Origin: Octopus vulgaris
Lineage: Eukaryota
Assembly (NCBI GenBank): GCA_951406725.2
Contig: OX597820.1
Span: forward strand, 21,018,001-21,082,000
Length of the DNA stretch: 64,000 nucleotides
Reading direction: 5' to 3'
The notes beneath the pieces were generated by a model. The model was not told where the DNA came from, made no database searches, and saw only the letters and a list, made by a program, of their open reading frames with translations. The position numbers and the translations under genes are program-made. Position 1 is the stretch's first letter. Every line of letters starts with the position of its first letter. This document shows, in pieces, positions 2,049 to 63,189 of this stretch.

Positions 2049-2214
2049 TATTTATTTATTCATAACCACAACGTATAATTACTCCAATAACTGCTGTCTG
2101 GCTGTCAATCTTGTATTCATTATATGAGTTGTAGACCAACAAGTGTTTACATTTTAATAAGTACCTCATTTACAGTGCAGTCTTAAATATAATGCCACCT
2201 CACTTTAAGAACCT
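2049..2214. repeat. ~166-bp segment whose inverted copy lies at 3012-3177
   Basis: Reverse-complement match with only scattered mismatches. Confidence 0.9.
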
Positions 2215-2487
2215 AAAAGACCACCTCTCCGACTTTGTTTAAATATAACTTTCTGAAAAACGTATACTTTTAAATGAACGTTTCAAGAAGATTTAGGGTT
2301 ATATGGAATTTGTTGTAGAAACTTTTATCGGGAGAGTGAAGAAAAGTTTAGGATAATGCACACACCTCGACTTTATTTCTTCATACGTTTTAATGAGATA
2401 AGTGAATTATCCACCCTCCCCTTCGTCTTTTATTTTCCACATCAAATTCGAACAAAACCACAATTTACACACACCATCTGAAATGTA

Positions 2488-2990
2488 CAGTTCCGTATTT
2501 AAAAGATGAGGAATTATGTACATTATTTACATTTGACGAGTATTTGTCCTCATCTTGTTTAACACAACGTTTCGGCTGATATACCCTCCAGCCTTCATCA
2601 TGTATCTTGGAGAAATTTCGAACCTGGGTTCTCATTCATAAGGTATTTTTCGCTGTTACTATCATTATTATTATTATTGGTACTACTTAAGAAGAGTGGT
2701 CCCGCTGAGCGCACTCGTGCATCCGCGCTAGATAGTCGTGACTAGTCGATCGTGTTTTTGTGTTTTATTTACTTTGTTTAAAAAAAATTATTTACTTTGT
2801 GAAAAAAATTATTTATTTTGTGTTTTACTTACTTTACTAGGTGGTCGTTGTAGGATCGACTAGTCACGACTAGCTAGCGCGAGTACGCGCATCGGTACCA
2901 CTCTTCTTATGTAGTACCATTGTTATTATTATTCAGGTCACTACGAACTCGGAATCTTAGGGTTAGTAGCCCACTACGCCATATACCCGT
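2488..2990 (-). mobile_element. tRNA-headed element E with hammerhead-like tail, interrupted by a MITE
   Basis: Reverse complement of 3184-3420. Contains (A)UGAUGAAGGCUG...CAGCCGAAACGUUGUGUU, with the core C mutated in this copy. Confidence 0.8.
2679..2918. mobile_element. MITE with long imperfect TIRs, apparent 3-bp ATT TSD
   Basis: ggtactacttaagaagagtggtccc ... gtaccactcttcttatgtagtacc, with inner IR tagtcgtgactagtcgatc/gatcgactagtcacgacta and ATT on both sides. Confidence 0.85.
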
Positions 2991-3183
2991 GGGCATATGG
3001 CGTAATGGTCAAGGTTCTTAAAATGAGGTGGCATTATATTTAAGACTGCACTGTAAATGAGGTACTTATTAAAATGTAAACACATGTTAGTGTACAACTC
3101 ATATAATGAATACAAGATTGACAGTCAGACAGCAGTTATTGGAGTAATTATACTTTGTGGTTGTGAATAAATAAATAGCAAAC

Positions 3184-3420
3184 GGGCATATGGCGTAGTG
3201 GTTAAGAGCGCGGGCTACTAACCCCAAGATTCCGAGTTCGATTCCAAGCAGTGACCTGAATAATAATAACAACAACAACGAAAAATATCTTAGGGGTGAG
3301 AACCCAGGTTCCAAATTTCCCCAAGATACCTGATGAAGTCTTGAGGATACATCAGCCGAAACGTTGTGTTAACAACAAACAAGATGAGGACAAATATCCA
3401 TCAAATGTAAATAATGTACA
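3184..3420 (+). mobile_element. tRNA-headed element E with hammerhead-like tail
   Basis: A box tggcgtagtgg, anticodon-like loop ctactaa, B box gagttcgattcc, (AAT/AAC)n linker, then cctgatgaag...cagccgaaacgttgtgtt. Confidence 0.8.
3325..3370 (+). ncRNA. putative minimal type I hammerhead ribozyme (Penelope-type)
   Basis: Consensus of three copies: stem I GACAC/GUGUU, core CUGAUGA, stem II GGCUG/CAGCC, GAAA, palindromic ACGU mini stem III and GUU site. Stem II is mutated in this particular copy. Confidence 0.55.
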
Positions 3421-3750
3421 TCTGAAACCATATTTGTAGAAAAATTTATGATTTGAGCTCAAATACTGGCGATTCATTGGTTAAAATTCGAAGAATTAAA
3501 CTACGTTAAACTTACAAATTACAAATTTATCAAAAAAGCCAAGTGAAAACAATGTTTTCTTTTGACACTTCAAATTGTTTAGTTAACTAGAAATTGGGTT
3601 GAATTCTGTCTATCTAAAGGAAAAGATCCAAATTTATTAAAAAACATCCATTTTTTCAAAAAGGTATGAGGAAACAAATTGAAGTATGTAAGTTATCGAA
3701 AACTCCTCTCCACTCTTCTGGCGAAAATATTTTTCACAACAAATTCCGAT

Positions 3751-4167
3751 AGGTGCAGGAGTGGCTGTGTGGTAAGTAGCTTGCTAACCAACCACATGGT
3801 TCTGGGTTCAATCCACTGCGTGGCATCTTGGGCAAGTGTCTTCTGCTATAGGCCCGGGCCGACCAATGCCTTATGAGTGGATTTGGTAGACGGAAACTGA
3901 AAGAAGCCTGTCGTATATATATATATATATAAATGTATGTGTGTGTGTGTTTGTGTGTCTGTGTTTGTCCCCTAGCATTGCTTGACAACCGATGCTGGTG
4001 TGTGTTTACGTCCCCGTCACTTAGCGGTTCGGCAAAAGAGACCGATATAATAAGTACTGGGCTTACAAAAAATAAGTCTCGGGGTCGATTTGCTCGACTA
4101 AAGGTGGTGCTCCAGCATGGCCGCAGTCAAATGACTGAAACAAGTAAAAGAGTAAAGAGAAAAGAGT
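3751..4167 (+). mobile_element. SINE family A
   Basis: Full head, internal (TA)n(TG)n, 3' half and (AAAAGAGT)-type tail. Confidence 0.9.
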
Positions 4168-4726: not shown

Positions 4727-5917
4727 CTTAGAGAGAAAAAAAAACAACAAAAACATACGCTATTTACATGAAAACAGTATGAACTTTCAAAATAAAATCT
4801 ATTTTGTGTTGACAATCTAAATATGAAAGCTTCGTCTATGTATACTGACTGCGACTAGGGCCAATAAGAAGTTAGTTCACTAAGTACATAGGTCTGGAGC
4901 CCAGAGAACCAATGAGGGGCCGGTGAATATCTGTTGTTCCCCTTCCTCAAAAGTTAAAGACAACCCCCCCACAGTTACCTCTTCATTGCATCATCTTACA
5001 AAGGTTATCAAATAAGCAGTTTTTTGGGTGTATTTTTAGCTTTTTATTACTGGGACCTGCCTATCTTTTCAGTAAAATGAACAAGTGTACTTTCAACCTG
5101 GCTGCAGACCAGCGCTAGATTAATAATTAAGCAAAATAAGCACGTGCTCAGGACATCAAGAGAAGTATGTATGAGTTTGTGTGTGTGTTGGAAAAATCTA
5201 AGAAATGGTAAATGGTTTACGACACAAAAGAAATCATTTTAAACTTGTTAAAATAATATTCGAAGTGGTTTATATGATCGGAAATGTAATTTCGAAGTGT
5301 CTATGGTATCACAGTGAGGCTCTGATCAAAGATTTTACAATTAAAAAGATGTTGAAAACTTTTCAAATGTAAATAAAGTGGAAGTATACAAAATAACTAT
5401 TTTCTATCTTACTGTTAGTTTTGTTTCGTCTTGAGAAGCAAAAAATTCATTTTATGGTTTATTATTGTTAAGATTTTGAATAACATATATATATATGGGG
5501 CCACCAAAATCTATTAAGTTTTAGGGCCTTGCTGTAGACTAATGATTGAAACGAGTAAAAATAAATAACGAGATATAATAATATGTACATTTAAGTATGA
5601 CAACGCCTCACTTAAAACAGGTTTAACGTATTTATCAACACTCTTCCGAGACACTTGATTGAAATTTATACCTAACTTACGTTCGATTAGATTTAAATTT
5701 AAGTCACATCATACATCCGGAATTGTCTAAATTATGTTCAATAAACCAAAAGCTCCGCATACAAACAAACCTTCATAAAACAATAATTTAGGTTCCTTTA
5801 TTATATTCGTTCATTAATTTTCATTTCATCGACGGAAAGAGAAAGGTCGGCACATTAAGATCAAAATAGCCAGGATTTTCCTGGAAAGGGTCTTCGGTGT
5901 TTAAATCGCAAAATAAT

Positions 5918-12892: not shown

Positions 12893-14085
12893 ATCATCAT
12901 CATTGTTTAACATCTGCTTTCCATGTTGGTATGGGTTGGACAGTTTCACTGAGGACTGGCAAGTCAGGAGGCTGCACCAGGCTCCAATCTGATCTGGCAA
13001 GGTTTCTACAGTTGGATGCCCTTCCTAACACCAACCATTCTGAGAGTGTAGTGGGTGCTTTTTATGTGCCATCGGCATGGGGTCCAGTCAGGTGACACTT
13101 GCATTGGCCATGGCTATGATCTCATTTGGCTTGCTGGGTCTTCTCAAGCACAGCATATCTCCAAAGGTCTCGGTCACTTATCATTGCTTCTGTGAGGCCC
13201 AATGTCTGAAGGTCATGCTTCACCACTTCATCTCATGTCTTCCCGGATCTACTTTTTCCACAGGTTCCCTCCACTGTTAGGGTGTGACACTTCTTCACAC
13301 AGCTGTCCTCATCTATATGCAATGCATCACCATAGCAGCACATTCATCTTTCTTGCACACCACATCTGAGGTTTCTTATGTCCAACTTTTCTCTCAGGGC
13401 ACTTACACTGATATTACACATCCAGCGGATCATACTAGCTTCATTTCTTGCAAGCTTACACATGTCCTCAGCAGTCATGGCCCATGTTTCCCGGCCATGT
13501 AGCATGGCTGTTCGCAGACATGCATCATACAGTCTACTTTTCACTCTGATTGAGAAGTCCTTTGTTACCAGCAGAGGTATGAGCTCTCTGAACTTTGCCC
13601 AGGCTATTCTTATTCTAGCAGCTACAATCTCAAAGTATTCACACTTGCTACTGACTTGGTTACCTAGGTAATAGAAGCTATTGTGAGGGCGCGTGGCTTA
13701 GTGGTTAGGGCATTCGGCTCATGATCGTAAGGTTGTGAGTTCGATTCCCGGCGACGCGTTGTGTCCTTGAGCAAGACACTTTATTTCACATTGCTCCAGT
13801 CCACTCAGCTGGCAAAAATGAGTTGTACTTGTATTTCAAAGGGTCAGCCTTGTCACTCTCTGTGTCACGCTGATTATCCCCGAGAAATACATTAAGGGTA
13901 CACGTGTCTGTGGAATGCTCAGCCATTTTGCACGTTAATTTCACGAGCAAGCTGTTCCGTTGATCGTATCAGTTGGGACCCTCGTCATCGTAACCGGCGG
14001 AGTAAGAAAAAAAAAAAATGGAAGCTATCAATTACTTCTAGTTTTCCCTCCTGGTATGTCATGGAATCTGTTTTCTGTATATATT
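12893..14085 (-). mobile_element. RTE-clade LINE fragment (family D), interrupted by a SINE
   Basis: RLYDACLRTAMLHGRETWAMT...RNEASMIRWMC is typical RTE post-RT sequence, followed by the family D 3' UTR and (GAT)n. Confidence 0.8.
13682..14016 (+). mobile_element. tRNA/CORE-like SINE family C with TSD
   Basis: gagggcgcgtggcttagtggttaggg head, gtgtccttgagcaagacact core and A-rich tail. TSD aat(a/g)gaagctat at 13670-13681 and 14017-14028. Confidence 0.85.
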
Positions 14086-18545: not shown

Positions 18546-20680
18546 TGTGTACAGTGCTCAGGTGCACTACAACTCATCTAAAGTGTATATATAATCAGGT
18601 GTAGTTTCGACGGATTTCGGGAAGCATGAGGGCCTTAAAGGATGCAGTGTCATGGCAGTCAACAACTGATGCAGGCAGTTTATTCCACGCTTCAGCAACC
18701 CTGAGCGTGAAAAAATGTTTCCGAAAGTCATGGGAGCTGTGCTGTTTTCTGACTTTGTAGGCATGTCCACGTGTGTTAGACACATGGAGATCAAAAAGGT
18801 GTTCAGTGTTGTTGTTGGTGAGGTGGTTGAAAACCTTGTGGGTGTTTACCAAGTCCGTCGCTAGACGCATCGGAGCTTCAGTGAATCCATGCCCAGGGAA
18901 ACAAGGCGCTCAGAATATGGTAGGTGTCTGATGGAGGGTATGCGTTTGGTTGCACGTCTCTGGACAGATTCCAGGAGGTCAATGTTCTGAGCAAGATAGG
19001 GATTCCAAACTGATGATGCGAATTCCAAGTGTGGTCGTACCATAGCTGTATACAGTTTTAAATAGATGGCTGGAGAGCGGCTAACAAAAGTCTTGCTGAG
19101 TGATGCCAAGACACCCTCGGCCTTCTTGACAATTTTAGAGATATGCTTTGTCCAACGCAAATCACTGCTGACAGTGATGCCTAGGTCACGCTCGCAAGAG
19201 GATTTCTTGATATCAGTGTTATGGAGGGAGTATGTGGACGCAGGGTTTTTCTCCCAAAATGCATGGTGGTACACTTGTCCACAGCCAGTTTCAGTTGCCA
19301 GTCTGTGATCCATTGCTGCATTGTGTCTAGGTCTGATTGCAGGAAAGAGTTGTAGACATCAGGATCAGTCCTCTTGATTTCAAGGTACAGCTTGATGTCG
19401 TCTGCATATTTCAATACTCTGGCATTCTTTAAATTGGCATCTATGTCATTAATGTATGCCACAAACAGGAGGGGACCAAGGACAGATCCCTGTGGTACAC
19501 CCGATGACATCTCATATGGTGTAGAGTGCTGTCCTAGAACTGTGACTACCTCCTTTCGGCTGAGGATGAAGGATTTCAACCAGTTAAAAAGGTCATCCCC
19601 CACACCCATTGCAGAGAGTTTCACCATAAGCCTTTTGTGTGGCACAGAGTTGAAAGCCTTAGCAAAGTCAAGGTAGACAACATCCACCCATGAGCCACTG
19701 TCAGTGATCTGAGTAATGTCCTCAAGGAACTCGACAAGCTGGTCACTGCAGCTGGAGTTAGGGACAAATCCATATTGTGAGGGTCGGATGAGACTGTGAG
19801 AGCTCCAGAAGTTCCAGAGTGTTTCTCTGACACACGATTCCATCAGTTTTGCAATACAGCTAGTGAAACTGACTGGGCGATAGTTGACAGGTGATGTGCG
19901 GTCACCCTTTTTGAACAGAGGAATGACACTGGCAGTTTTCCACTGCTCCGGAGTAGCACCATTGTTGAGACAGTACTGGAAGAAAATAGAAAGCTGGTGT
20001 AAAAGGAAGTGCCTGCCACGTTTGAGAAGCAGGTATGTAACTCCATCGAGACCAGGGGAGGCATAGTTGCGCTTATTTTGAAGGTGACGTCGCAGCATTG
20101 CAGGTGTAAATTCCATAGTTGTTATGGAGTTTGCTGTTAGTGATGGTGAAGATGGTGCATTTTGACTTTCGACAGTGAATATGTTTGCATAGCATTCGGC
20201 AATGAGTTCTGCGCATTCCTTGGGGTCGTCAGTGTTCTGGTTCGTGTGAGGGTTGCGAAGAGGGCCCACTGGAGAGTGAGGTCTCTGCTTTGAATGCACA
20301 TATTTCCAGAAAACCTTGCTGTCAGGATTGGCTGCTATGCACTGTTCAAATTCAAGCACTGCATTTTTTGTCACTTGCTTGAGATGGTTGGAGGATTTAT
20401 TCCACTTCTTCCTGTTGGTGTCTGATTTATGCAACTTGTATTCCTGTTCAGCAGTCCGATGTTCCTTCCTGGCAAGTCGGACTGCTGAAGTTTCCCAAAT
20501 TGCCCTTTTGGGGCGGTTCTTCTTTTTTTGTTTACGTGGCACTGATGCTGCACATGCTGCCCATATTGAGTCCAGGATACTCTGGAGTATAGTATTCACA
20601 TCTCCAGAGTTGTAGAATTCACGCCAGTTTGGGTGCTGTAGTTCAGTGTGGTACAGGTTCCAATCTGCTCTCTTCCAATC
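18485..20680 (-). mobile_element. 5'-truncated CR1/L2-group LINE (RT plus C-terminus), two frameshifts, (TTA)n tail
   Basis: NYRPVSFTS, DVVYLDFAKAFNSVPH, GVPQGSVLGPLLF, YADDIKLY, RPHLEFASSVWNPY and FFTLRVAEAWNKLP occur across three overlapping ORFs. It is inserted into an RTE family D 3' UTR. Confidence 0.95.
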
Positions 20681-21178
20681 TTGGAAAGGCATCCAGCTGT
20701 AAAAACTATCCCAAAACTGATCTTGCCTGTACTCGTACCAAATTAAAAGCAGGGGCATATATTACAGGTGTGCTAGGTGTGTGTTGCACACACACTAAAA
20801 ATGGCAAATTCATTATAAATATTAACCTTACTCGTTAGTTTAATCACAAATCTTAATGGAAATCTTTTGTTATATTCCTACTTGGAATTTGGTGGCACTG
20901 GATGTATGTGGCAGCACAGCCAATACTACACTGGTAAACAGCACTCAACCCATTCTGCAAGGTGGTTGGTGTTTGGAAGGGCATCCAGCTGTAAAAAAAT
21001 AAAAGCCATGCCAAAACAGACACAGAAGTATGGTGCAGTCTGCTGCCTGACCAGCTCTTGTCAAACTGTCCAACTTGTTGATTTGAAAGCTTCGTATCTC
21101 TCATAAGCAACACTTTGGCCACCGTTGTGATACAGGTACACTACTTACTTTCTGGAAAACCAGAAAATCCATACTATA

Positions 21179-25590: not shown

Positions 25591-25705
<115 letters not shown>

Positions 25706-25780
25706 GCATGTATGTATGTAATGTATGTATGTATATATGTATATGTATATATATATACAAATATATACATATATATATAT

Positions 25781-28700
25781 AACTTAGAATAACTTAGAAA
25801 GGTTTTTGGCCAGTATTGGCCCAGGCCATGTCTAACTTAATAGCACCACCTGGCGAAGTCTTTCAGTTCAGGATTTGGGCACCAAGGCCCATTCGAGCAG
25901 AGAGTTATTGTTTGCGGAGACATATCCGGGTGTGGATGGTTTGTCCGGTACTGTTTGAAGGAATTTGTCCAAAGACTTCTTGAATTTTGTGTGGTCAGTT
26001 TCTTTTTTGACGTGTCCTGGTGTAATGTTGAAGAGAGCGGGTCCAATTGAGGTGAAATAGTTGTGCCGTATTGTCGTTATGTGATGCGATTTAGATTTTT
26101 GTTGTGGACGGATGGCACGTGGTCCAAGCCTTGGATGCATTTTGAAGGTGATGCCAACATCATTCGGACAGTGCTGATGGAATATTTTCCACATCATACA
26201 GATAATGTAGCGTTCACGGCGTCGTTGGAGTGAATACAATTTCAGCTTCTCTAGTCTACCCCAGTAGTCAAGGTCTGACATGCCATCTATCTTTTTTGTG
26301 ATTGACCTTTGGGGAGCTTCAATTCTCATAATATTTTGTTTTGTGTAGGGAGACCACAGTGGACAGCAGTATTCAAGGTGGGGTCGGGCAAAAGTGGAGA
26401 AGAGAAGGATAATAGCGTGGGAATCTCTCGACTGGAAGGTTCTGAGAATCCAGGAACACATTCTGCGGGCCATGTCAACTTTGCTGCTTATATGTGTAGC
26501 CCAGCTTATGTTGTTGTCCACTGTTACTCCCAGGTCTCTGATGTTGTTGGATGCCATGAGAATTTCTCCAGAAGGAAGAGAGTATGGGAGTTTCAGAGCG
26601 TCCTCCCTTCCAAAGTGGATCAGTTCGAATTTGTCTTCATTTAGCAACATGTTATTCTTTTCCGCCCATTGGACAACAGCTAGTAGGTCTGACTGAAGGT
26701 TTATTCGGTCATCCACGCCATTGATGACCTTCTGGAGCTTGGAATCATCAGCGAAGGTTCTGATGTTGCTGTGTTTGATGGTGTCAGTAATATCATTTAT
26801 GTAGATGATGAAGAGAAGTGGGCCCAACACAGTGCCTTGTGGGACACCACTGCTGACTTTGGCTGGGCTGGATTTGACTCCTTCGACTACAACATGTTGG
26901 GTTCTGTTAGAGAGGAAGCACTTGATCCATTGCAGCAGCTTTCCAGTGACACCAATATTGGACAGCTTTCTCAGAAGGATCTTATGATCAACCCTGTCAA
27001 AGGCCTTGCTGAAATCAAGGTAGATGACATCAGTGTTGGAACCCTCTCCCAAGGCTCTCAAAATGTCATCAAAATGATGCAGTAGCTGCGTCAGGCAATC
27101 TCTCCCATTACGAAATCCATGCTGGTTGGGGTTCAGCATATTATGACTCTCAAGGAAGTGAGTCATACGCGATCTCAGCACCCTCTCAAATACCTTGATG
27201 ATATGAGAGGTGAGTGAGATTGGACGGTAATTCACGGCAAGCGATTTGTTTCCTTTTTTGAAAACTGGGACAACAGACTGGGATAGAAGGTCTTCTGGTA
27301 TATATCCAGCATCCAATGAGTTCCGCCACAGATTGGCTAGAGGGGGTGCAAGTTGGTTTTGACACATCTTCAAGACACAAGCAGGGAACCTATCGGGACC
27401 TACTGCTGAATTATGCTTCATTTCCTTTATTGCTGCTAAGACATCAGGAGCGCCAAATGTTATGTCCGATAAAGTGTATTGGGGAGTAACATCACTGATA
27501 CAGCCCAGATCAGTCATATCAGGATTGCTGAAAACAGAGCAATATTGTTTCTGCAATATTTCTCCCATGGTTTTGGCATTGTCTTGAAGAGTACCATTTT
27601 CATCAATCAGAGGGCCAACAGTAGAACCAGTGACTCTGTGTTTTTTTGCAAATGAAAAGAACACTTTGGGATTGAGTTTGATCTTCTCAATGGCCCAGGC
27701 CTCTTCAGCTCTTCGCTGACTATTGATGATAGACATCATGTTGTTTTGGAGTTTATGTTTTTTAATCTCTAGCGACGAGATGGCAGTCAGGTTGGTGTGT
27801 TGCTGTTGACAGTATTTCAGCATGTTGATCTTTTTGTTGATTCTTTTAATTTTCCTTATGAGAGATTTTCTATTTCTAGGGATTCGACACTTAGATTTGT
27901 TTGCAGATCTTAATGGGGTGTGTCTTGCACATATGTTCGTGATGGTGTCTACAAGTGACTGCCAGGACTTTTTGATGTTAGTGGGTGTGTATGTGTGCGT
28001 GAAGGACCAATCGACTTGTGCAAGATCATTATTGATCGCTTCCCAGTTTGCATTGTGGAAATCCATAGTGTCAAATGGATGAACAGGAGGGATGACATTT
28101 GTTTTGCATTTTGGCCAGTGAAATCTCAGATCACAGAGAACCATGTCATGGTCGGAGAGTAGGGTTTTCTCCACTGCAATATTGTGGATAGTATCAGTGT
28201 GATTGCTGAAAATTAAGTCTAAGACGTTTTTGTGACATCTCGTTGGTTCGAGTACCAGTTGGGACAAGAAGAAGTCATCCATGAAGTCAAGAAGCGATTC
28301 CACTGCCTCCCTGTCAGGGGTTGAGAGAGAAGAACCTGGCGGCAGACTGTTTATAGACCAGTCAACCCCGGGAAGGTTGAAATCTCCCATCATTAAAATG
28401 TTGTCAGGTTGACACTGCTGAATGAAACACTTTATGCTGTTGAGGCATTCCTTGAAGCATGGTAGGGGCGTTTGGGGTGGTCTGTAGAGCCCAACTACTG
28501 TTAAGTTGTTGGTTTGACTGAATACAGCGACTGCTTCGCAGTATCCATTCGAAAATATGTTCATGGCTTCTGTTGAGAATGAATCATGGACATAAATGGC
28601 AGTCCCACCCTTTCTTCTGCCAACACGATCAGCACGAATGGTTTTGAAATTTTTAACTTTCACCTCGGCTTCCAAGTGGAGGTCACTAAGATGGGTTTCA

Positions 28701-28894
28701 GTGAGGACGAAGAAAGGGATGTGGTTTGGATGGGCCTCGACCCAGTCCTCCAGGAATCTTATCTTCCATTTTTGTGTATTGGTGGAAGGGCTGATGCCTT
28801 GGGCATTAAGCAGAAATGTTGAGGCGAGAGTGGATGGTTTTAATTGTTTTGGTGATTTGTTTATTTGATTGCTTTTTAATTTGATTGCTTTTAA
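25781..28894 (-). mobile_element. young CR1/L2-group LINE with intact ORF2 and no ORF1
   Basis: 3' UTR hairpin GGCCA-atac-TGGCC, tail ttctaagttattctaagtt, and an identical ~100-bp flanking duplication. Confidence 0.95.
25868..28894 (-). CDS. LINE ORF2: APE endonuclease plus reverse transcriptase (~1000 aa, uninterrupted)
   Basis: EN motifs [34 protein letters not shown] and SDHDMV. RT motifs [35 protein letters not shown] and FADDSKL. The tracked extension to 29233 is read-through of flanking (TA)n. Confidence 0.9.
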
Positions 28895-28974
28895 TATATA
28901 TATATATATATATACATATGCATGTATGTATGTAATGTATGTATGTATATATGTATATGTATATATATATACAA

Positions 28975-29116
<142 letters not shown>

Positions 29117-29166
29117 GCATGTATGTATGTAATGTATGTATGTATATATGTATATGTATATATATA

Positions 29167-29600
29167 TAGGGACACTATATTTCATTTTGAAACCGTAACA
29201 TACTACCAAGTATATTAAAGGTTTGTAAGTCAATAGTTTCCCACTTTATGTTAGCAGTGTCTCACTTTCACTTGTACAAGTATCTCTACAGATTTACTTT
29301 AGAATTCAGACCTAGTATTGACTTATAAACGCTGAATATACTTAGTGTCCCTATGGTGTCCCTTCCAGCAATTGATAAGTACATATCAGTTGCCAGGAAT
29401 GTGCTTAATATATAAGCTGGTCAAGCCAATAGTGTTACACTGTTAAATTTAGTAACTATTTAAGTAATGTATTCAGGGATAGTTGTTGGGTTGGATGTGA
29501 TACTGAAGAAGGAACGATAACTCTTGAAATGCGTATATACACTCATTATCTTAACTTTCAGTGCTTGTTCTAAATTCTATAATCTGTAGAGATATATGTG
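29167..29600 (+). mobile_element. fold-back element with minimal hammerhead (Penelope-type terminal sequence)
   Basis: IRs at 29167-29177/29343-29353 and 29208-29235/29316-29343, plus gtgata-CTGAAGA-AGGA-loop-TCTT-GAAA-TGC-GTA-tatacac at 29497-29542. Confidence 0.55.
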
Positions 29601-40609: not shown

Positions 40610-40925
40610 TAGGGGTTAGGGTATTGGAGAGTTGACTGTAAGGTTGTGGTTTCATTTCCTGGACCAGGCGACGTGTTGTGTTCTTGAGCAAAACACTTGA
40701 TTTCACATTGCTCCAGACCACTCAGTGTGGCTTAGTGGTTAGGGAGTTGGACTCATGAACCTAAGATTGTGGTTTCAATTCCTGGATCAAGTGACACATT
40801 CTGTTCTTGAGCAAAACACTTTATTTCACATTGCTCCAGTCCACTCTGCTGGCAAAAGTGAGTAATCCTGTGACAGACTGGTGTCCTGTTCATGTGGGGA
40901 ATATATATATGTGCCATGGAATGAG
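40610..40925 (+). mobile_element. two tandem tRNA/CORE-like SINE heads (family C/G type)
   Basis: Repeated ttcttgagcaaaacactt(g/t)atttcacattgctccag core. Confidence 0.7.
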
Positions 40926-46960: not shown

Positions 46961-47100
46961 GGTGTCTTGGAAAAATTTCAAACCTGGGTTCTCATTCCTA
47001 AAGTATGTTTTTCTATGTTATCATTATTATTAAGGTCACTGTCTGGAATCGAACTCGAAATCATTGGGTTAGTAGCCCACGCCATTAACCACTACGCCAT
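46961..47100 (-). mobile_element. element E, third copy (ends at the hammerhead core)
   Basis: Reverse strand reads atggcgtagtggttaa...gggctactaaccc...gagttcgattcc...gagaacccagg...ccaagacacc. Confidence 0.8.
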
Positions 47101-47206
47101 AAAAAATTGTTTTTTCAGAATGGGTTAAAAAACCAAGGCTGTGAAGATTTTAGAACATAATCTTCACAGCCTTGATTTTTTATCTCATTCTGAAAAAAAA
47201 TTTTAT
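47099..47206. repeat. ~108-bp palindrome / hairpin insertion
   Basis: ttttttcagaatggg...caaggctgtgaagatt-loop-aatcttcacagccttg...cattctgaaaaaa. Confidence 0.85.
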
Positions 47207-55139: not shown

Positions 55140-55345
55140 TTCCTTCATTCCATCTGAAAACCACCAGGTGTGCAAAATTCTAAGTAATGCTTACAATGGA
55201 ACAATAACCAGCTTTAATAATCTAACTGAATACACACACACACACACACACATATTTATACATACATACATACATACATTCATACATATTACATACATGC
55301 ATACATACATATATATATATATATATATGTATGTATTTATATATG

Positions 55346-61896: not shown

Positions 61897-62335
61897 CATG
61901 AAACTTTCAATTTCACTAAAACTACACACACACATACACAGACACACACACACAGACATACACACACAGACACACATACACACATACACACACACTAATG
62001 GATATAAATGTACCACTAACACTGAATTGTAACAGTTCTTGCCTGATGATTACAATGGCATGAAACTTTCAATTTCAATAAACACACACGCGCACACACA
62101 CACACACACACACATACACACTAAAAGATATAAATGTACCACTAACACTGAATTGGAACAGTTCTTGCATGGTGATTACAATGGCATGAAACATCCAATT
62201 TCAATAAACACACATACACACACTGAAGGATATAAATGTACCACTAATACTGAATTGTAATAGTTCTTGCTTGATGATTACAATGGCATGAAACTTTCAA
62301 TTTCAATAAACACACACACACACAAATACACACAC
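61897..62335 (+). repeat. tandem repeat, about 3.5 units of 100-160 bp, each with an internal (CA)n
   Basis: Unit: catgaaactttcaatttca-(CA)n-gatataaatgtaccactaacactgaattgtaacagttcttgcctgatgattacaatgg. Confidence 0.9.
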
Positions 62336-63189
62336 GCATGCATGTGTGCAGAGGGAGAATCAGAGATAGGTGCAGGCATGGCTGTGTAGTTATGAAGTCT
62401 GCTTCTTAAGCACATGATTTCGAGGTCAGACCCACTGCAAGGTAACTTATATCCTCAAGGCCTATCAAACCTTTTGGTAAATGGAAACTTTATAGAATCC
62501 CATCATGTATGTTTATGTGTGTGTGTGTGCATGGATATGTCTGCATCTTCTTGTTGTAACATTAAGCAACAGTTGTAAATGTGTGTCACCAACATTTAAG
62601 TGGGGTTGCTCATTTCCAATCTTCTGTGGTAACATGTTCAGGCATAGGGGGGAAATATTAGCTTACTAGGAAACAGATGAAGGTTGGCAACAGGAAGGGC
62701 ATCCAGTGGTAGAAACTCTGCCTCAGTGAATGCCATCAGACCCACGCAAGCATGGAAAGTGAACATTAAAATGGTGATGATCAGGTTCAGGATTAAGATT
62801 ATGAAGTTACACAGTCAAGAAATATCGTTAATTTCTTTGTTCCATAATTATTATTAAGTATATGCTAGGTGGTGAGCTGGCAGAATCATTAGTATGCCAG
62901 GCAAAATGGTCAGTGCCATCTTACCTGTCTTTACATTCTGAGTTAAAAATTCCACCAAGGTTGACTTTGCCTTTCAACAAATCAGGATTGATAAACTAAG
63001 TACTAGCTACCAGTTGTGCATTATGGTTGATGTAATTGACTATACTCCTTGCTCCAAATTTCAGGCCCTTTAGTTATAATAGAAAGGATCATCATCATCA
63101 TTATCATCATCATCATTGTCATCGTCATCGTCATTGTCATCATTGTTGTTGCTGCTGTTGTTGTTATCGTTATCATTATTAATACTGAG

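Follow-up and report, generated by a model that had tools for sequence, protein, structure and literature searches.

Positions 2475–3427 of the 64-kb window, the whole stretch of Octopus vulgaris DNA analysed here, hold a 953-bp block in which two copies of a short repeat, element E, stand head to head inside a 9-bp direct repeat. Read from left to right, the shell of this block consists of a TSD copy, a left E on the minus strand, a plus-strand stub of the E head, an inverted copy of flanking DNA, a 4-nt link, a right E on the plus strand and the second TSD copy. These and associated features, in window coordinates, are as follows.

2049–2214, plus strand: source of the copied segment, 261–426 bp upstream of the left TSD and without another repeat in the window
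2302–2407, plus strand: left arm of an older inverted pair, ~70% identical to its partner at 3646–3751
2475–2483, plus strand: left TSD copy, true length probably 5–9 bp
2484–2515, minus strand: 3' extension of left E only, 32 bp, a probable Penelope 'tail'
2516–2678, minus strand: left E, 3' part, carrying a 6-bp deletion and some of the (AAT)n tract
2561–2606, minus strand: predicted type I hammerhead of minimal form in left E, with a C-to-A change at core position 3 and an intact 6-bp helix II
2679–2918, no strand assigned: nested MITE, 240 bp, TIRs of ~65–73 bp, GG...CC ends, ATT/ATT flanks (3-bp TSD)
2919–2990, minus strand: left E, 5' part (tRNA-like head), with 12-bp and 8-bp deletions that break the predicted A/B-box promoter
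2971–3008, no strand assigned: junction palindrome, 38 bp (32/38), formed by the left E head and the stub
2991–3013, plus strand: E head stub, 23 bp, 21/23 identical to right E, including bases now deleted from left E
3012–3177, minus strand: inverted copy of 2049–2214, with 2-nt exact microhomology at the stub end and none at the other end
3178–3181, plus strand: 4-nt link, untemplated or a mutated E leader (2/4 positions differ from the left E leader)
3182–3421, plus strand: right E, with a complete 5' end and without the tail; A box at 3191–3201, B box at 3236–3244
3325–3370, plus strand: predicted type I hammerhead of minimal form in right E, with an intact core but a disrupted helix II
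3419–3427, plus strand: right TSD copy, its first 3 nt common to the E end
3646–3751, minus strand: right arm of the older inverted pair, partner of 2302–2407
46961–47101, minus strand: a single third copy of E whose 3' truncation falls just short of the hammerhead core, A/B boxes intact

An earlier, sequence-only reading of this DNA had pointed to the 9-mer catctgaaa as bracketing the block, and it is indeed present at 2475–2483 and 3419–3427, with two further copies in the 64 kb, at 55151 (plus strand) and 23573 (minus strand). Random placements rarely reproduce this arrangement: a 9-bp repeat that abuts the right junction and falls within 50, 60 or 100 bp of the left-arm end arose 70, 85 and 138 times, respectively, per 20 000. 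The same reading warned that overlap with E might make the true TSD shorter, and the caution was well placed: because the first three bases of the right repeat overlap E and an identical 7-mer ends both arms, the true TSD is probably 5–9 bp long.

The stub and the inverted flank copy also proved to be as that reading had them. The stub matches the right E head at 21 of 23 positions, while 3012–3177 aligns with 2049–2214 without gaps at 159 of 166 positions, the seven substitutions being four transitions and three transversions. The 166-bp segment, which could in principle have been a dispersed repeat, has no third copy within the 64-kb window. At 2214 a 5-nt match lies near the 2-nt exact microhomology, and the opposite junction (3177/3178) has zero microhomology. 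The palindrome that the stub forms with the left E head folds strongly (z −2.95). We rejected copying of the stub from left E in its present, deleted state, which needs a 3-nt gap plus a substitution versus one substitution.

Left E, by contrast with the single minus-strand block described before, is interrupted by a 240-bp element with inverted repeats, lacks 12, 8 and 6 bp in three places, and runs 32 bp further 3' than right E. The MITE, these three deletions, the 3' extension, the older flanking inverted pair (~70%) and the predicted tRNA-type promoter had all gone unmentioned. The 240-bp element sits in left E's (AAT)n tract, is non-coding, and shows the small size, TIRs and TSD of a MITE; it has no second copy in the window and, judged by its nesting, is a later insertion into left E. 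Divergence between its TIRs was discarded as a clock, since TIRs need not begin identical. Because left E is split by this nested element, carries deletions and extends further 3', the 953-bp block must record at least two events. The older inverted pair that flanks the block reaches a local score of 84, against a maximum of 48 across 200 random windows, and probably represents the remains of a TIR element into which the insertion went; the empty form of such an inverted-arm element would span about 500 bp.

Element E and its two halves

E is a dispersed, non-coding repeat of ~240 bp, with three copies in the window. A protein search with a reading frame antisense to E matched the C-terminal end of a predicted NUP42 protein of Octopus bimaculoides, P0001 (E-value 3e-12), which makes E a dispersed repeat that occurs in octopus. 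The NUP42 model itself ends in antisense E (residues ~147–194), either by exonisation or through a gene-model error. Protein searches with the E frame returned no match at similar length, one among longer proteins and four among representatives; only P0001 of these four is genuine, and P0002–P0004, repetitive proteins of 32–40% identity, were set aside. Searches of GTDB genomes (two scans) and of plasmids gave no matches, and phages gave four, all weak and partial. Within the window, the third E copy (46961–47101) directly adjoins the head of a different SINE, and 5334–5379 gives a weak match to the E 3' end (73%, E-value 0.001), possibly the terminus of a related element. Two heads of a further tRNA-type SINE family, at 13694–13747 and about 40727–40780 (plus strand), are about 67% similar to that of E, and the first has full A and B boxes.

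The 5' 70 bp of E contain A and B boxes with a 34-nt spacer in two of the three copies, right E and the copy at 47 kb, as scored with a consensus taken from general knowledge; 100 shuffles produced no hits. In left E the 12-bp and 8-bp deletions have broken this arrangement. The best phage match of the head is a tRNA gene, weakly so (E-value 0.06). ARAGORN made no tRNA calls on the head, Rfam gave no relevant match for the head (tRNA) or the ribozyme (hammerhead) at E-values up to 5–10, and the head RNA folds (z 0.91 and 1.11) are not clearly beyond those of shuffles. We predict that the E head is a tRNA-type Pol III promoter.

The 3' half of E appears to hold a minimal hammerhead of the PLE type. 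The hammerhead core pattern gave one hit versus 0.02 expected, and the layout comprises a 5-bp helix I, an extra base before G10.1–C11.1, a 6-bp helix II (left E) and a palindromic dinucleotide at 15.2–16.2 in place of helix III, traits given for the minimal hammerheads found in Penelope pseudo-LTRs (PMC4209133). Each E hammerhead carries one disabling change, at core position 3 on the left and in helix II on the right. The ribozyme folds (z −2.13 and −1.65) are not clearly beyond shuffles, and the MFE structure of right E is without the hammerhead fold. Downstream of the motif in left E, the 32-bp extension at 2484–2515 contains 10 nt complementary to the E body, a length reached by 24 of 5000 random 32-mers, and because of this complement we suggest that it is element sequence. 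The extension is paired in the centroid fold, and the E 3'-end fold as a whole (z −1.02) is not clearly beyond shuffles. It probably belongs to E as a Penelope tail, known from the left copy alone. With the left promoter and one left hammerhead position broken, and helix II broken on the right, the product is, to judge from these lesions, inert.

Because six-frame translation of E yields no frame above about 55 aa, and an RT and GIY-YIG ORF is absent, E is not an autonomous PLE. Neither E arm has a poly-A or simple-repeat 3' end, the 3' part of E matches none of the LINEs of this window, and no tandem (head-to-tail) E occurs in this window. In size, dispersal and lack of coding capacity E fits the definition of a SINE (dispersed, non-coding, under 600 bp), and a type I hammerhead per unit, as in retrozymes, is predicted in both of the two copies long enough to hold one. 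We suggest that E may be a short non-autonomous retroelement that combines a tRNA-type Pol III head with a 3' half resembling a Penelope pseudo-LTR in its minimal hammerhead and probable tail. The most novel component of the locus is E itself, with its predicted tRNA head joined to a Penelope-type 3' half. Octopus SINEs have been described in older work, and E may already be catalogued in Repbase or Dfam. Nothing in the literature searched, which included few subscription papers, describes an octopus SINE that has a tRNA head and is driven by Penelope.

Assembly of the locus

The block had been called Penelope-like on the strength of its inverted, head-to-head arrangement, and this call is now better supported by the predicted PLE-type minimal hammerhead in E, the TSD, the probable one-sided 32-bp tail and the 38-bp junction palindrome. 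Since published Penelope insertions show head-to-head units, a 9-bp TSD, a one-sided tail of ~31 bp, palindromes at the junction and host DNA that was captured, the outer shell is probably a single Penelope-driven insertion. The proposal that one integration event made the whole can be kept for the outer shell; it fails for the complete block, because the MITE came later. The locus is an old, inert insertion, probably of Penelope type, that captured its flank in inverted form and was later hit by a MITE.

How the shell and the flank copy came about can be modelled in some detail, and we are evenly divided over an account in which one Penelope-type RT/GIY-YIG integration of E made the shell together with a snap-back copy of the flank. 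Staggered nicks 5–9 bp apart, as the TSD suggests, would have opened the target, and both 3' ends would have primed reverse transcription of E RNA. On the top strand an outer start site would have given left E with its 32-nt tail; on the bottom strand an inner start site, with a 3-nt microhomology, would have given right E. On reaching the 5' end of the RNA, the top-strand cDNA would have folded back and copied about 19–23 nt of cDNA, leaving the stub and the palindrome. It may then have snapped back onto its own strand at 2214, where 2 nt of microhomology are available, and extended for 166 nt upstream to give the inverted copy; the geometry of this step is visible in the sequence, and the polymerase could have been either a host end-joining polymerase or the RT. 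Finally, the growing ends would have been blunt-joined at 3177/3178, where microhomology is zero. The MITE and the three deletions would have hit left E afterwards, an order for which the nesting can be read directly. In favour of this account, the TSD abuts both 3' ends; against it, L1 templated inserts usually derive from within 15 bp of the site, versus 261–426 bp here. No partner Penelope was found in the window, where the scanned RT ORFs of at least 100 aa are an APE-RT LINE and an RT-only fragment.

The step most exposed to challenge is the timing of the flank copy. We consider the chances even that it was made in the same event as the shell, and distinctly lower that it was added by later repair. 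The latter account, a possible one that we hold with some doubt, takes two steps: a Penelope-type head-to-head insertion with its palindrome, followed by a break at the hairpin-prone centre and microhomology-mediated template-switch repair that added the 166-bp copy. The strong fold of the palindrome speaks for such a break. Divergence within the flank pair, which has no indels, is about half of that between the E arms (7/166 versus 18/206 substitutions, the (AAT/AAC)n tract left out; Fisher p = 0.097 two-sided, 0.062 one-sided). The MITE lies in left E, and so do all three deletions (12, 8 and 6 bp; p about 0.025). With CpG sites removed the counts are 16/188 for the E arms versus 6/164 for the flank pair (p = 0.077), and a post hoc pool that adds the stub and leader to the E arms gives 23/235 (p = 0.052). 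The stub, moreover, differs from its templates at 3 of 23 positions (p = 0.07 on the assumption of the same age as the flank copy). Taken together, divergence and deletions lean towards a younger flank copy.

Against this lean stands the result that the split into events expected from dating by divergence is not significant (p = 0.097 above). The left and right E heads alone differ at 3 of 66 positions, the same level as the flank pair, and E-arm divergence is a weak clock because two different source RNAs would by themselves inflate the distance between the E copies. When the arms are set against the 47-kb copy and P0001, one protein-level site groups them together and another splits them, with no net sign of a single RNA. 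A later break would also require more resection, about 540–940 nt versus about 260–430 nt, and no bases have been lost from either head at the junction.

An unlikely alternative is that two E copies inserted independently, that the inverted duplication arose separately, that the 9-bp repeat is fortuitous and that E is an ordinary LINE-driven tRNA SINE. E is dispersed, the arms are 8.7% apart with left E the more damaged, and only 6 of the 9 bp of the right repeat lie outside E, all of which suit this explanation. The chance of the repeat is 0.35–0.7%, however, neither arm has another TSD candidate, E is without a poly-A or simple-repeat 3' end, and the predicted hammerhead, tail and palindrome all fit the Penelope pattern.

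We regard capture at the RNA level, in which the RT switched template from E to nascent RNA transcribed at the target locus, as very improbable. PLEs do capture host sequence between pLTRs, and template jumps have been proposed for this in the account of such captures (PMC3846280). The orientation here is compatible with a plus-strand transcript, but the region has no ORF of at least 100 aa, and the product cannot be distinguished by sequence from that of DNA snap-back. Least probable of all is an assembly or library artefact, a fold-back chimera: amplification chimeras typically yield local inverted copies, yet because a single-molecule chimera should be near-identical, whereas seven scattered substitutions without indels separate the copies, such an origin can be given hardly any weight.

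Genomic setting and comparison with known systems

The 64-kb window is gene-poor (30–46% GC) and rich in microsatellites and short interspersed repeats. A frame with APE endonuclease and RT at 25868–29245 (minus strand) is apparently a near-intact LINE, set in (TA)n, and an imperfect (TA)n unit pattern recurs at about 25655–25780, 28894–28995 and 29060–29168, possibly reflecting microsatellite targeting with a long duplicated flank. A second LINE-type RT frame at 18861–20761 (minus strand) encodes 526 aa, with a 165-aa piece downstream in another frame, and a tandem duplication at 61956–62338 has units of about 102–126 bp anchored in (AC)n.

Taken alone, this is a single old, inert insertion that gives no sign of a function for the host. 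The locus gathers within one kb the predicted Penelope intermediates: two start sites, a fold-back palindrome, a TSD and a captured flank. The better lead is element E, not this single locus. We entertain, tentatively and at clearly less than an even chance, the idea that octopus has a true SINE partnered by a Penelope element instead of a LINE, which would prime on both target strands at two RT starts and regularly copy nearby DNA in inverted form. If E is indeed a PLE-driven Pol III SINE, the known partners of SINEs would be widened, and this may explain part of the unclassified octopus families, which make up 893 of the 900 recently active SINE families reported for O. vulgaris (PMC13282606); a term search of one supplement to that repeat annotation gave no mention of hammerheads. 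E, being short and abundant, would in that case also offer a large natural data set for reading Penelope integration from junctions.

The insertions with which the shell can be compared are those of Pen2a and Pen3a, Penelope/Poseidon PLEs of Adineta vaga, whose description (PMC3846280) includes inverted pLTRs within 8–10-bp TSDs (9 bp among them), a 31-bp one-sided tail, junction palindromes of 18–38 bp, and unrelated host DNA captured between solo pLTRs inside the TSDs. The octopus locus shares with them the head-to-head units, a short TSD (8–10 bp there, probably 5–9 bp here), a palindrome and captured DNA, and its 32-bp extension would correspond to their one-sided tail of 30–40 bp. Unlike Pen2a and Pen3a as described, E is without an RT/GIY-YIG ORF and has a tRNA-type head (predicted), and the DNA captured here came from the upstream flank of the target itself, copied in inverted orientation. 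We found no description of inverted local flank capture by a PLE in the literature searched, which included few subscription papers. The same general scheme of Penelope insertion is given in PMC8557442, where the origin of inverted structures is still described as open, and a Poseidon protein is reported to nick and extend both strands in vitro, the tail corresponding to the gap between two RT start sites (PMC11167929). Non-autonomous PLEs are on record, and Penelope is reported as abundant in coleoids (PMC8967140, PMC9977147, PMC6685494).

Local copying during retro-integration is likewise known from other retroelements. L1 inserts are reported to include two-RNA, opposite-orientation and twin-primed forms, and also inserts templated near the site (PMC11702581), mostly from within 15 bp of it (bioRxiv 10.1101/2024.08.27.596794), and R2 is reported to snap back onto cDNA or nearby rDNA (PMC11371274). 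As in these junctions, both target ends here appear to have been extended, opposite cDNAs joined, and local DNA or cDNA copied at the 5' junction. Unlike those reported for L1 and R2, the present insertion has no poly-A, both of its arms begin at or near the element 3' end, and the source lies 261–426 bp away versus about 15 bp. The earlier reading had put forward template switching to local DNA as a mechanism that creates local inverted duplications; with copying of local DNA already reported for L1 and R2, it is not a new one, and both the insertion architecture and local templated copying in retro-integration are already known.

The predicted E hammerheads resemble the minimal hammerheads described from metazoan PLEs (PMC4209133) in their core, helix sizes, extra base and palindromic stem III position. 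Opposite-strand pairs are described there as about 100–700 bp apart; the two motifs here lie about 720 bp apart, and would have lain about 480 bp apart before the MITE. They appear to differ from the hammerheads of that description in that both E copies carry a disabling change. Type I hammerheads also occur in the SINE-like repeats of Schistosoma, reported to be Pol III transcribed (PMC6765202), and in animal non-LTR retrozymes, proposed to be non-autonomous PLE derivatives (PMC7229834; bioRxiv 10.64898/2026.07.22.740005). Like both of these groups as described, E is short and non-coding and carries a (predicted) type I hammerhead. Their units are arranged in tandem, head to tail, whereas in this window E is present as an inverted pair plus one solitary copy, and it differs from them further in pairing a complete tRNA-like 5' head with a probable PLE tail.
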